Of a stretch of DNA of 64,000 nt, positions 3,950 to 26,194 are shown in pieces. Position 1 is the first letter of the stretch. Each line of letters begins with the position of its first letter. The notes below the pieces were generated by a model. That model was not told the DNA's origin and made no database searches. It saw only the letters and a list, made by a program, of their open reading frames with translations. The DNA is from Candidatus Latescibacterota bacterium (GTDB taxonomy: Bacteria > Latescibacterota > UBA2968 > UBA8231): contig OZ252098.1 in NCBI GenBank assembly GCA_965248355.1, positions 2,720,001 through 2,784,000 of the forward strand. Direction: 5' to 3'. Both the position numbers and the translations under genes were made by a program.

Positions 3950-4026
3950 GCACCTATAGCTCAATTGGATAGAGCATCTGACTACGGATCAGAAGGTTGG
4001 GGGTTCGAGTCCTCCTGGGTGCACCA
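3950..4026 (+). tRNA. tRNA-Arg (anticodon ACG)
   Basis: Cloverleaf: acceptor GCACCTA/TGGGTGC, D-arm, anticodon arm TCTGA-CTACGGA-TCAGA, T-loop GTTCGAGTC, encoded CCA. Confidence 0.97.
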
Positions 4027-4154
4027 AACAAAAAAACGCAATCGGCCTCCCTGACCGACGCCTCCCTGCTCCGCGCCTCCTCCGGCAACGCCGCCTCGAT
4101 CTCGACTTCGTCCTGCACGACTGACCAGCAGCCCCGCCCGATCCTCTCGGCACG

Positions 4155-7100
4155 ATGGACCTCAGGCCGTTGAGGCTTGAAGACCTCCAGCCCGGCGCCG
4201 CCGTGGGCGGCCTGGTCCCCAACGGCGCGGCCGAGATCGTCAGCGTGCAGTGGCACGGCACCGAGGCGCTGACCGTGATCTACCGTCCGCCCTCCGGCCG
4301 CATCGCCGAGGAGATCCTCTACCGCCACGACGAGGCGCGTCTCGAGGTGGTCGAGCAGGGCCGGCCGTGGAGCTTCGACGGCGACGGGGCCGCGTACCGC
4401 CTGGTCTCCGAGGCCAACCGCATCCGCCTGGCCCACCTCTTCGATCCCGTCCTCGCCGTCCACACCTCCCTGGTGGAACCCCTGCCGCACCAGATCACCG
4501 CGGTGTACGAGGCCATGCTGCCGCGCCAGCCGCTGCGCTTCCTGCTGGCCGACGACCCCGGCGCCGGCAAGACGATCATGGCGGGCCTGCTGATCAAGGA
4601 GCTGATCGCCCGTGGCGACCTGGAGCGCTGCCTCGTGGTCTGCCCCGGCAGCCTGGTGGAACAGTGGCAGGACGAGCTCTACCGCCGCTTCGACCTGCCC
4701 TTCGACATCCTGACCAACGACAAGCTGGAGGCGGCGCGCAGCGGCAACTGGTTCCTGGAGAACGACCTGGCCATCGCGCGGCTGGACAAGCTGGCCCGCA
4801 ACGAGGAGATCCAGGCCAAGCTGGGGGCCCGGGACTGCCGCTACGACCTGGTGGTCTGCGACGAGGCGCACAAGATGTCGGCCTCCTTCTTCGGCGGCGA
4901 AGTGCGCTACACCAAGCGCTACCAGCTCGGCCGGCTGCTGTCGGGCCTGACCCGCCACTTCCTGCTGATGACGGCGACGCCGCACAACGGCAAGGAGGAG
5001 GACTTCCAGCTCTTCCTGGCCCTGCTGGACGGCGACCGCTTCGAGGGCCGCTTCCGAGACGGCGTGCACCAGGCGGACGTCTCCGACCTGATGCGGCGCA
5101 TGGTCAAGGAGAACCTGCTCAAGTTCGATGGCCGGCCCCTGTTCCCGGAGCGCATCGCCTATTCCGTTCCCTACAAGCTCACCGAGGCCGAGTCCCGCCT
5201 GTACAAGGCGGTCACCGAGTACGTGCGGGGCGAGTTCAACCGGGCCGAGGCGCTCAAGAACGACGGTCGAGTGCGCACCGTCGGCTTCGCCCTCACCATC
5301 CTGCAGCGCCGCCTCGCCTCCTCGCCGGAGGCCATCTACCAGTCCCTGCGGCGGCGGCGCGAGCGCCTGGAGGGCCGCCTGGAAGAGCTGTCCCGCCTGC
5401 AGAGCGGCGCCACCCGGCCCCAAGCGCTGGCGAACACCGGACCGGCCCTGGACATCGAGGATGTGGAGGACCTCGACGAGGCCCCGTACGACGAGGTCGA
5501 GGCCGCCGAGGCCGAGGTGCTGGACCAGGCGACGGCGGCCAGCACCATGGCCGAGCTGCGGGCGGAGATCGCCTCGCTGAAGCACCTGGAAGGGCTGGCC
5601 GCCGAGATCCGCCGGGGCCAGGACGATACCAAGTGGCGGGAGCTGTCCAACCTGCTGGGGGAGATCTTCACGCCCGCGGGCCTGGGCGGCCGGGTCGCGG
5701 AGGCCAAGGCGCCCTACGGCGGCGGCGACATCCCGCCCCACGCGCCCTCGCCGCGCCAGAAGCTGGTCCTGTTCACCGAGCACCGGGACACCCTCGCCTA
5801 CCTGGAGCGGCGCATCGGCACCCTGCTGGGCCGGCCGCACGCGGTGGTGGTGATCCACGGCGGCCTGGGGCGGGAGGACCGCCGCAAGGCCCAGGAAGCC
5901 TTCCTGCACGACCCGCAGGTACAGGTGCTGCTGGCCACCGACGCGGCCGGGGAGGGCATCAACCTGCAGCGCGCCCACCTCATGGTGAACTACGACCTGC
6001 CCTGGAACCCCAACCGCATCGAGCAGCGCTTCGGGCGCATCCACCGCATCGGCCAGACCGAGGTCTGCCACCTGTGGAACCTGGTGGCCGAGGAGACCCG
6101 CGAGGGAGACGTGTACCGCACCCTCCTGGACAAGCTGGAGCAGTCCCGCCACGCCCTCGGCGGCCAGGTCTTCGACGTGCTCGGCAAGCTCCAGTTCGAT
6201 GGCCGACCCCTTCGCGACCTGCTGGTCGAGGCGATCCGCTATGGCGAGCGGCCCGAGGTGCGGGCCCGTCTGGAGCAGGCCGTGGCGCAAAGCGTGGACA
6301 AGTCCCATCTGCAGAGCCTCATCGAGGAACAGGCCCTGGCCCACGACGCCATGGACTCGACCCGGGTGGCCCGCGTCCGCGAGGAGATGGAGCGCGCCGA
6401 GGCCCGGCGCCTGCAGCCCCACTACATCGAGTCCTTCTTCCGCGAAGCCTTCCAACGCCTCGGAGGGACCGCGCGCCGGCGCGAGCCCGGCCGCTACGAG
6501 ATCACCCACGTCCCGGCCACGGTGCGCAACCGCAAGGGCCCCACCGGTGCCGGGGGACCGGTGCTCAGGCGCTACGAACGCATCGCCTTCGACAAGCGGC
6601 ACCTCACCCCCCAGGGTCAGACCCCGGCCGACTTCGTGTGCCCGGGGCACCCCCTGCTCGACGCCGTCCTCGACCTGACACTGGAACGCCACCGCGGCCT
6701 CCTGCAGCGGGGCACGGTGCTGGTGGACGACCGCGACTCGGGGGTCGAAACGCGCGTGCTCTTCACCCTGGAGCACGCCATCCGGGACGGCAGCTCAGGA
6801 CCCGGCGGAGAGGGCGGGGTCATCTCGCGGCGCATGCTCTACGTGGAGATCGACGCGGAGGGGAATCCCCATCACCTGCATCACGCCCCCTATCTCGACT
6901 ACCGGCCCCTGGCCGATGACGAACCGGCGGCGAGGGAGATCCTCGCCCGCCCCGAGTGCGCCTGGATCACGGGGGACCTGGAGCAGAAGGCGCGCCACGA
7001 GGCGATCGCCCACATCGTGCCGGAGCATGTCTCCGAGGTGCGCGACCGGCGGCTGGCCTGGATCCGCAAGACCCGGTCCGCGGTGCAGGAACGGCTGACC

Positions 7101-7742
7101 AAGGAGAGCGCCTACTGGGACAGCCGCGCCGAGCAGCTCCGGCTGCAGGAGCAGGCCGGCAAGGCCGGGGCCCGTCTCAACTCGGGCGAGGCGAGCCGCC
7201 GCGCCGACGACTTGCAGGAGAGGCTCCGGCAGCGTATAGCACAACTGGACGGCGAGGAGCAGATCTCGGCCTTGCCACCGGCCGTCCTCGGCGGCCTCGT
7301 GGTGGTGCCGGCGGGCCTGCTGGCTGCGATGAGCGGACACCCGGCGCCTCGGCCGGCGGTGGATACCCAGGCCGTGGCGGCCAAGGCCAGGGCCATCGTC
7401 ATGGAAGAGGAACGGGGCCTCGGCTTCGAGCCCGTGGATCGCGAGTTCGAGAGGCTGGGCTACGACATCGAGAGCCGGGTCCCCGGCACCGGCCGGCTGC
7501 GTTTCATCGAGGTGAAGGGGCGCGCCAGCGGCGAAGAAAGCGTCACCGTGACCAGCAACGAGATCCTTACCGGACTCAACAAGCCGGAGGACTTCATCCT
7601 CGCCATCGTCGAGTTCCTGGAGGCGGGCACGCACCGCGTGCATTACCTTCGCCAGCCCTTCCAGCGAGAGCCCGACTTCGGGGTGACGAGTGTGAACTAC
7701 AAGCTGGAGGAGCTGATTGCCCGGGCGGGGGACCCGGGGTGA
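4155..7742 (+). CDS. SNF2-family helicase with C-terminal DUF3883-type PD-(D/E)xK nuclease
   Basis: LLADDPGAGKT, CDEAH, MTATPH, TDAAGEGINLQ, EQRFGRIHRIGQ; C-terminal GYDIES...FIEVKG. Confidence 0.9.
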   Translation: MDLRPLRLEDLQPGAAVGGLVPNGAAEIVSVQWHGTEALTVIYRPPSGRIAEEILYRHDEARLEVVEQGRPWSFDGDGAAYRLVSEANRIRLAHLFDPVLAVHTSLVEPLPHQITAVYEAMLPRQPLRFLLADDPGAGKTIMAGLLIKELIARGDLERCLVVCPGSLVEQWQDELYRRFDLPFDILTNDKLEAARSGNWFLENDLAIARLDKLARNEEIQAKLGARDCRYDLVVCDEAHKMSASFFGGEVRYTKRYQLGRLLSGLTRHFLLMTATPHNGKEEDFQLFLALLDGDRFEGRFRDGVHQADVSDLMRRMVKENLLKFDGRPLFPERIAYSVPYKLTEAESRLYKAVTEYVRGEFNRAEALKNDGRVRTVGFALTILQRRLASSPEAIYQSLRRRRERLEGRLEELSRLQSGATRPQALANTGPALDIEDVEDLDEAPYDEVEAAEAEVLDQATAASTMAELRAEIASLKHLEGLAAEIRRGQDDTKWRELSNLLGEIFTPAGLGGRVAEAKAPYGGGDIPPHAPSPRQKLVLFTEHRDTLAYLERRIGTLLGRPHAVVVIHGGLGREDRRKAQEAFLHDPQVQVLLATDAAGEGINLQRAHLMVNYDLPWNPNRIEQRFGRIHRIGQTEVCHLWNLVAEETREGDVYRTLLDKLEQSRHALGGQVFDVLGKLQFDGRPLRDLLVEAIRYGERPEVRARLEQAVAQSVDKSHLQSLIEEQALAHDAMDSTRVARVREEMERAEARRLQPHYIESFFREAFQRLGGTARRREPGRYEITHVPATVRNRKGPTGAGGPVLRRYERIAFDKRHLTPQGQTPADFVCPGHPLLDAVLDLTLERHRGLLQRGTVLVDDRDSGVETRVLFTLEHAIRDGSSGPGGEGGVISRRMLYVEIDAEGNPHHLHHAPYLDYRPLADDEPAAREILARPECAWITGDLEQKARHEAIAHIVPEHVSEVRDRRLAWIRKTRSAVQERLTKESAYWDSRAEQLRLQEQAGKAGARLNSGEASRRADDLQERLRQRIAQLDGEEQISALPPAVLGGLVVVPAGLLAAMSGHPAPRPAVDTQAVAAKARAIVMEEERGLGFEPVDREFERLGYDIESRVPGTGRLRFIEVKGRASGEESVTVTSNEILTGLNKPEDFILAIVEFLEAGTHRVHYLRQPFQREPDFGVTSVNYKLEELIARAGDPG

Positions 7743-25908: not shown

Positions 25909-25978
25909 GTCGTGTTCCCCCTTCTCTCGCAGTACGTTGAGGCCGGCCCAGGGGAGCGGTTCCCCCGGGCCTTCCTCA

Positions 25979-26080
25979 TCAGGCCAGTTTCAGGTCCCGC
26001 AGGGTGAAGCTCGCCGCGTCCACGACCTTGAAGGCGGCCAGCAAGGCCGCGGTCAGGTGTACTTGACCTTCGGCCGCTTG
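25979..26080 (-). pseudogene. C-terminal fragment of a probable major capsid gene, cut at the inverted repeat
   Basis: Reads QAAEGQVHLTAALLAAFKVVDAASFTLRDLKLA* with coding-like codon usage; followed by a hairpin, then the protease gene. Confidence 0.4.
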
Positions 26081-26194
26081 GGGGGTCCCCTCTCCAGGGT
26101 GGGCAATCTCGTGGGTAAGGACCCAACAACGGAGTCCTAAATCACAAGAAATCAATCATTTAGGGAATGTGTTCGAGTCCTCCTGGGTGCACCA
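26080..26194 (+). repeat. Right inverted-repeat copy / attR: arm repeats, IHF site and 24-bp tRNA core
   Basis: GTGGGCAA/GTGGGTAA tandem at ~26099-26118; AATCAATCATTTA (WATCAANNNNTTR) at 26150-26162; core at 26171-26194. Confidence 0.9.

Follow-up and report, generated by a model that had tools for sequence, protein, structure and literature searches.

Introduction

Islands and prophages of the P4 type integrate at tRNA genes by means of a tyrosine integrase and of attachment (att) sites made of a core and flanking arms. In KplE1, arm-type sites at attL are described as overlapping the integrase promoter, and arm binding as allowing assembly of the intasome (PMC2951348). For grounded elements, the described route is the loss of the recombinase or of parts of the att sites (PMC6379469), and inversions between repeated integrated elements have been described as well (PMC8371274). 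Hma defence systems, which are part of the locus treated here, carry embedded genes in 62.7% of cases (bioRxiv 10.1101/2024.01.29.577857). The analysis concerns an island at a tRNA-Arg(ACG) gene within a stretch of 64,000 nt (the window) on contig OZ252098.1 of a Candidatus Latescibacterota bacterium, whose genome (G000) has 5.5 Mb in one contig and is 95.7% complete. The island probably belongs to a P4-type family carrying Hma that integrates at tRNA genes, and is probably grounded, with an inverted duplicate of its right end around a trapped satellite fragment.

Organization of the tRNA-Arg Island

The intact tRNA-Arg(ACG) called by ARAGORN at 3950-4026 (+) is the sole gene with an ACG anticodon in the genome, and core 1 begins at its T-arm. 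The coordinates and strands that the original prediction gave for three att cores were recovered: core 1 (4003-4026, +) is the same as core 3 (26171-26194, +) over 24/24 bases, and core 2 (23063-23080, -) is a partial core of 18 bp, matching the first 18 bases. This 18-mer is found in these three places only in the 5.5-Mb genome, with up to two mismatches permitted, and its chance expectation in 22 kb is 3e-6. What the prediction omitted is that cores 2 and 3 carry a shared arm and lie at the outer ends of an inverted repeat of 109 bp (23063-23171 and 26080-26188, 107/109 identical, 98%), while core 1 has no arm. The inverted copy of the attR arm (23081-23171, -) has its mismatches at 23082 and 23103, and the paired arms share a perfect stretch of 68 bp. 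The repeat has no other copy in the genome, where a profile of the two arms finds the two arms alone. The right arm (26080-26170, +), i.e., the 91 bases inside core 3, has two tandem 8-mers, 12 bases apart (26099 and 26111), which are putative arm-type repeats, and at 26150 an IHF-type site as judged by the consensus. The 128 bases of the spacer after core 1 (4027-4154, +), the position of the left arm and the integrase start in the islands of congeners, have neither the arm motif nor an IHF-type site. The three cores are real but are not equivalent sites.

An empty site was found in one of the four congeners with both flanks visible (G006), where the tRNA directly abuts the DNA that in the window lies behind core 3, including a host hairpin (26214-26250, +; z -6.0 for 26189-26275). 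Because the tRNA is joined straight to this DNA, the host tRNA end that was displaced (attR) is at core 3, which runs on as the empty site does, and core 1 is the attL core. The other three congeners (G002, G004, and G007) have inserts of 2-5 kb at the same tRNA-Arg site with no second core, so that this site is a slot where inserts lose their ends; two of the three inserts contain a homologue (77%) of HEC-01, one of the cargo systems of the window.

Search for an Integrase

As the original prediction had said, no integrase open reading frame (ORF) lies between the cores: the 29 ORFs of the island gave no integrase against Pfam, and a profile of 28 recombinases of relatives gave a best E of 0.45 against the six frames of the island. 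A six-frame search of the genome with PF00589 gave three matches, all of them outside the island, at 321276, 1058221, and 2237957. The match at 2237957 follows what reads in the sequence as a topoisomerase-like gene, and the match at 1058221 is near the GC-skew maximum, among dif-like sites; the recombinases at 321276 and 2237957 would be housekeeping XerC/D. The terminus recombinase (1058221) was also the sole match when the 28 recombinases of relatives were searched against the genome by tblastn. Arm-DNA-bind_3 (PF13356) had 0 matches in the genome and is present in 5/9 congeners and in 19/132 genomes of the class. A single serine-recombinase match is located at 985874, 1.7 Mb off, beside a tRNA-Met. 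The genome search for a tRNA-targeting tyrosine integrase that had been advised thus returned no P4-type integrase. Among 30 fetched integrase loci, none has tRNA-Arg(ACG) as the integrase site according to ARAGORN. Having no integrase gene, the island is considered a grounded derivative and not an active P4-type member, and since the left arm is missing as well, it is likely fixed in the chromosome.

Related Islands in the Genus

The arm of the window has a homologue in G004, where contig C223, found through HmaC, has it joined to the 3' end of a tRNA-Leu(TAA); downstream of it comes the gene that in G000 is next after tRNA-Leu(TAA) (89% nucleotide identity). The 91-bp arm and this attR arm agree at 59/91 positions with no gaps, compared to a mean of 23 and a maximum of 37 in 10,000 shuffles; the likeness stops at the same inner point, and beyond it the identity drops to 26-32 of 90. 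On contig C4 of G004, the tandem motif recurs behind tRNA-Leu(TAA), ahead of an integrase that has the domains Arm-DNA-bind_3, Phage_int_M, and PF00589. From the common tRNA, C223 and C4 would be the two ends of one island, within which decayed pieces of hmaA and hmaC are found. At tRNA-Leu(CAA) in G006 (L121:4628-10391, contig C6), the order is P4-type integrase, an ORF, AlpA, a second tyrosine recombinase, and a truncated hmaC that is 84% identical in nucleotides to the hmaC of the window. These layouts in G004 and G006 assign the arm to the right end of a family of P4-type islands, one by which Hma is carried in the genus. The G006 locus also has the appearance of a left end like that of phage-inducible chromosomal islands (PICI), with two recombinases.

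Within the genus, exact matches of the tandem motif are limited to both G004 ends and both arms of the window, and the strict arm pattern is present in 1/168 genomes, which is G000 itself. A DNA search for the arm in 75 other genomes of the family, one that missed the 65%-identical G004 arm, returned tRNA-core matches alone. A loose tandem arm pattern, with matches in 77/132 genomes, was dropped, as the three fetched loci were coding, one having no match in the part viewed. The exact arm 20-mer was tried as an element marker, giving 0 stretches in viral_contigs and nine in metagenome_contigs; seven of the nine are just behind a called tRNA-Val, the eighth shares the tRNA-Val sequence context (one unrelated element), and the ninth is near no tRNA. 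As its matches are at tRNA-Val, the 20-mer motif is generic and not a marker of the window element. A G run at the inner end of the arm prompted a search for Tn3-family ends, which was abandoned with 0 PF01526 matches in the genome; this end is the shared limit of the integrase arm family.

Proposed History of the Island

The 22.2-kb island was likely put at tRNA-Arg(ACG) by a P4-type tyrosine integrase, and core 2 is likely part of the inverted right-end copy, i.e., a rearrangement scar. Here it is proposed that, after integration at the T-arm of the tRNA, the integrase and the left arm would have been deleted, and a piece of a circular capsid-forming satellite would have been captured against the right arm. 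Regarding the duplicate, we infer that the right end was then duplicated in inverted orientation behind hmaC, probably over at least 548 bp at first, and that the left copy was later cut back to 109 bp, probably via a microhomology of five C. Afterwards, the Hma block would have been inherited vertically, swapping cargo by ordinary recombination. The original prediction had also offered a stranded composite of successive integrations; the stranding agrees with this history, whereas successive integrations alone would give direct and not inverted copies, and the two copies are the same arm at 98%.

The Hma block may be transcribed in part from the tRNA promoter. The observation that the defence genes are co-directional and start about 130 bp after the tRNA with no obvious terminator was confirmed: 129 bp separate hmaA from the tRNA, every defence ORF is on the + strand, and no + strand terminator-like site was found in 3800-4400. 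In its folding, the stretch 4027-4157 does not exceed shuffled sequence (z +0.99), with no stable + strand hairpin in the spacer. Since the host hairpin is now behind core 3 and 4027-4157 has no stable fold, read-through from the tRNA into hma is predicted from the sequence as plausible.

Evidence from Other Strains

Four runs (X1, X5, X6, and X14) were mapped as contigs on 7001-27000, a stretch that leaves core 1 outside; from this mapping, 15/168 joints and 24/1,803 loose ends were listed. Part of 21000-28000 is held by 20/24 listed runs from 10 studies. In X1, probably the source sample, seven island records have depths of 17-18.6, and the satellite cassette between the arms has a depth of 15; the comparison of island coverage that had been suggested therefore gave flat contig depth across the island, with no support for a mobile switch. 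There are no core-to-core joints among the 15/168 joints listed. An assembly artefact was considered as the source of the inverted repeat and rejected, given that X1, X6, and X14 contigs end at 26109, a break predicted by the 31-mer graph of the window.

The part from portal through protease to arm is present in X5, X6, and X14 at ~98-100% identity. X5 has one contig at 25641-26147 with a depth of 48 that passes 26109 with no break, and another that extends 1,412 non-arm bases past 23167. In a graph simulation, a form with both arm alleles running into the capsid stub and the protease reproduces the X5 ends, which suggests in this model that the inverted copy once had at least 548 bp and was later trimmed at a run of five C. 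The mean pairwise identity is 98.6% for the portal (four contigs), 98.8% for the protease (five), 98.3% for HmaA (six), 95.5% for HmaC (10), and 93.5% for the right-flank gene (10). The cassette proteins diverge as HmaA does, fitting vertical inheritance; a recent independent spread of the cassette is not supported, the divergence of portal and protease being that of HmaA. Eight junction-spanning ORFs were looked up, and one was present in the collection, as a singleton.

Several points weigh against the grounded-island history. Cores 1 and 3 are still identical over 24/24 bases and nothing has been lost from the right arm, which may point to some selection or to a recent origin. The long-repeat model was made from the breakpoints of X5 itself, making its fit a consistency check, and a mix of strains could mimic the depths. 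One contig of X14 stops at 26170. The simulation has a break at this position when the two arm alleles both border the right flank; under this model, a core-crossing inversion between cores 2 and 3 or a lineage-specific base change would fit, but an empty site, which predicts 26171, would not. Rare recombination products are possible, given that the evidence comes from contigs and the listed joints, with core 1 outside the mapped stretch. Finally, other assemblies of the species appear to share the layout as judged from equal contig sizes rather than from DNA: HmaC is on a contig of the same size as the right-flank gene in eight other assemblies, and as the portal or the protease in five.

Alternative Readings

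The geometry of three reactions among the cores, as originally predicted, is correct; the usable three-way switch drawn from it is not supported, there being no P4-type integrase, no arm at core 1, and damage to the tRNA in the reaction between cores 1 and 2. In silico, the inversion between cores 2 and 3 exchanges two bases in each arm without touching the tRNA; it is possible, and it would flip a broken head module only and change little. It is unlikely that the 3.1-kb cassette flips now and then between the arms, with a probably neutral outcome, whether RecA acts on the perfect stretch of 68 bp or a P4-type integrase from outside acts on the cores. The two intact arms (107/109), the X14 end, which suits a core-crossing inversion and not an empty site, and the P4-type integrases in 5/9 congeners favour such flipping, and a crossover within the perfect arm stretch would be invisible to 31-mers. 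Nevertheless, the genome has no cognate enzyme, the break at 26170 comes from a single contig, in a strain of 95% identity, and a base change in one lineage explains it equally well, and either orientation sets the same arm by the same neighbours.

It is quite unlikely that the island is non-autonomous but still undergoes excision and transfer in trans, between cores 1 and 3, through the integrase of a co-occurring relative. These cores are perfect, and in silico excision restores the tRNA and the flank and releases a 22,168-bp circle; related Hma DNA is present at the tRNA-Leu islands of G004 and G006, and one conspecific contig (2,436,201 bases) has both flank genes with no Hma member among the matches listed (15/19 and 15/16). 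Opposed to this are the lack of an arm or IHF-type site at core 1, given that the intasome is described as requiring arm binding for its assembly (PMC2951348), the 0/30 integrase loci at tRNA-Arg(ACG), and the flat depth of X1. Very unlikely is a "double-attR" unit of facing attR arms, recombined by the P4-type integrase of a neighbour strain, which would flip or swap satellite head genes or bracket an excised Hma block; if true, attR-by-attR recombination would be rearranging in trans an element that has no integrase, and stranded att arms would be shown to have a further, new use.

The on/off switch of the original prediction, in which inversion between cores 1 and 2 ties the defence block to tRNA read-through, is extremely unlikely, for although these cores are inverted with 18 bp in common and hmaA is close behind a tRNA whose hairpin has moved behind core 3, the enzyme is missing, core 1 has no arm, the sole RNA run (X20) contained 0.07 of the words, and in silico the product has one acceptor-stem pair broken, the discriminator base changed, and the encoded CCA lost in the only tRNA-Arg(ACG). 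ARAGORN still calls this product, three bases shorter; CGU, CGC, and CGA, the codons that fall to this tRNA, make up 57% of the Arg codons in 764 long frames, and we infer a cost of the inversion to the tRNA.

Hma Defence Block and Its Cargo

The grounded island carries, at 4155-22913, an Hma system with embedded cargo, predicted by its protein families to be anti-phage. The hmaA, hmaB, and hmaC genes are in order, on one strand and unbroken, nearly covering the full PADLOC profiles: HmaA, an SNF2 helicase (4155-7742, +; PDLC00659, 1626 bits), HmaB, an adenine methylase with DUF1156 (8602-11649, +; PDLC00660, 1468 bits), and HmaC, a DUF499 ATPase (19593-22913, +; PDLC00662, 1124 bits). Between hmaB and hmaC, all on the + strand, are a PDC-M38A/B-like pair of ABC ATPase and DUF3226 (11714-13644; Pfam, PADLOC), a DUF6615 ORF with a Schlafen AlbA_2 ORF (13472-16053; Pfam), PDC-M45A/B/C with a dual OB and two DUF488 proteins (15969-17831; Pfam, PADLOC), and HEC-01 (17839-19587; PADLOC), an ATPase whose partner is in two ORFs (19014-19358 and 19135-19587). 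Across Hma and similar systems, 96.7% of embedded genes share the orientation of their host system (bioRxiv 10.1101/2024.01.29.577857), and this being normal, the co-direction of the block needs no special cause. HEC-01 gave no protection in the assays of that preprint, and PDC-M38 and PDC-M45 are not named in its main text (bioRxiv 10.1101/2024.01.29.577857).

The cargo varies between strains, as contigs of X5 and X6 join 17834 to 19593, skipping HEC-01. The depth of the PDC-M38 stretch is <3 over most of it in X5 and X14 and 1-7 in X6; the low depth at 11670-14337 in these three runs is a lack of cover and not a bridged deletion. Concerning the split HEC-01 partner (19014-19587), the X1 contig agrees with the window, and X5 has two gaps in 17744-19633. 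X1 differs from the window by one extra base and one substitution, at 12952 and 13934, in the PDC-M38A and DUF6615 ORFs, possibly an assembly error. In the DUF6615 ORF region, 13673-13839 is 70% identical to the start of a HEC-01-type ATPase gene, likely a scar of cargo swapping. Between hmaA and hmaB (7743-8605, +), two small ORFs (7743-8189 and 8186-8605) with no match in Pfam, PADLOC, or NCBIfam are candidates for Hma-embedded genes. The genome also has a second, distant Hma-like or DUF499 locus (G000:C1:753812-770248), with 31% amino acid identity to HmaC.

Satellite Fragment between the Arms

According to its gene content and alignment, the DNA trapped and broken between the arms comes from a capsid-forming satellite of circular form, of which it is one piece. 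Its 2,908 bases match, circularly permuted, a sibling element in the same genome (G000:4216594-4224940), which has terminase, capsid, protease, portal, and an insertion sequence, and no tail. The fragment contains a small zinc-finger-like ORF (23470-23685, +; 83% nucleotide identity to G000:4216594-4216873, whose ORF matches PF24623), a palindromic site with a 6-bp spacer (23680-23697) where the two ends of the sibling are joined, i.e., the permutation point of the alignment, and a 202-aa ORF with a hydrophobic N-terminus (23718-24326, -; 90% nucleotide identity to the sibling, with no match in Pfam, PHROG, or NCBIfam). These are followed by the portal protein (24400-25404, -), with 60% amino acid identity to the sibling portal (PF04860, E 3.7e-10) and homologues carrying PF04860, by the HK97-type prohead protease (25405-25908, -; PF04586, E 1.3e-17), and by what is probably the 3' end of a major capsid gene, ~33 codons long (25979-26079, -), cut by the arm. 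The identity of this stub comes from a weak pairwise match to the sibling capsid C-terminus (11/25, E 0.003), backed by the same gene position as in the sibling. The cassette thus has portal and prohead protease with no tail or holin, as in capsid-forming PICI (cfPICI), and it has no whole capsid gene and no terL. No integrase, AlpA-type regulator, primase-replicase, or head-tail adaptor/connector was found in the cassette or in the sibling. In the sibling, the terL ORF abuts the insertion sequence, the capsid is spread over two frames, and a 305-aa ORF has no family match.

Relatives of the sibling in G045 and G047 have in addition a tyrosine recombinase, together with an HNH protein in G047 and a head-completion protein in G045. 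This recombinase resembles the terminus recombinase of G000 and not the P4-type integrases; those of G047 and G045 (L072:6459-7358 and L073:10703-11866) are 48-50% identical to it (G000:C1:1057783-1058742). The joined-ends site of the cassette (23682-23695) fits a 14-bp pattern with eight matches genome-wide, four of them around the terminus recombinase gene. Three small contigs of G084 (C9, C12, and C6; L075-L079) have capsid-forming elements, two of the contigs being head-to-tail repeats of ~10.3-10.5 kb, and look like free circles or concatemers; they encode terminase, capsid, protease, portal, glycosyl hydrolase 108, and an 850-aa unknown ORF, no tyrosine recombinase was found in them, and they have one site of the 14-bp pattern per unit, behind the portal. 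Capsid-forming satellites may use a lox/dif-like site served in trans. The portal searched as a single protein had no relatives in viral_contigs or genome_contigs; an alignment search gave two distant viral loci, in which a scan for the site pattern and the recombinase found none. A weak portal-like match at L080:10276-10866 (G038:C168) overlaps the gap between two 37-bp repeat arrays that are CRISPR-like.

Comparison with Known Systems

Each part of the locus is known biology, and the locus is an example of a defence island becoming fixed at a tRNA gene while exchanging cargo inside Hma. Counts of att cores overstate mobility, because arms and enzyme decide. A more promising lead than the island is the family of capsid-forming satellites, with its recombinase and its lox/dif-like site.

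Invertons and shufflons are inversion switches driven by a recombinase. The window resembles them in having inverted recombination-type sites that flank a short segment, and differs in that there is no invertase nearby, no promoter-like site was found in 22800-26500, and no second orientation was seen. Regarding the satellite, the sibling resembles cfPICI (PMC10085698) as described there in having terminase, capsid, protease, and portal with no tail, whereas the window cassette, keeping protease, portal, and a probable capsid stub only, lacks most core genes of that class (PMC10085698). It is unlike EPIPs, among whose described features are a serine integrase and a tape measure protein (PMC12822802). 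The literature search, which covered inverted att or tRNA fragments in islands and wider terms, gave no abstract that describes the layout of the window.

The defence block resembles the Hma systems of Payne et al. (bioRxiv 10.1101/2024.01.29.577857), as presented there, in having hmaA-hmaB-hmaC on one strand and co-oriented cargo that includes HEC-01; it differs in having ~10 genes between hmaB and hmaC, compared to the three allowed in that survey, and in the split HEC-01 partner. As in the described P4-type islands and prophages (KplE1/IntS of E. coli; PMC2951348), the island has an intact tRNA at attL, the displaced 3' end at attR, and arm-type repeats with an IHF-type site in the arm. In grounded derivatives, the loss of recombinase or att sites is described as fixing the element and leaving deletions and inversions likely (PMC6379469). 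Unlike the P4-type islands, the window island has lost the integrase and the left arm, and has its right arm doubled, the second copy being inverted with a partial core.

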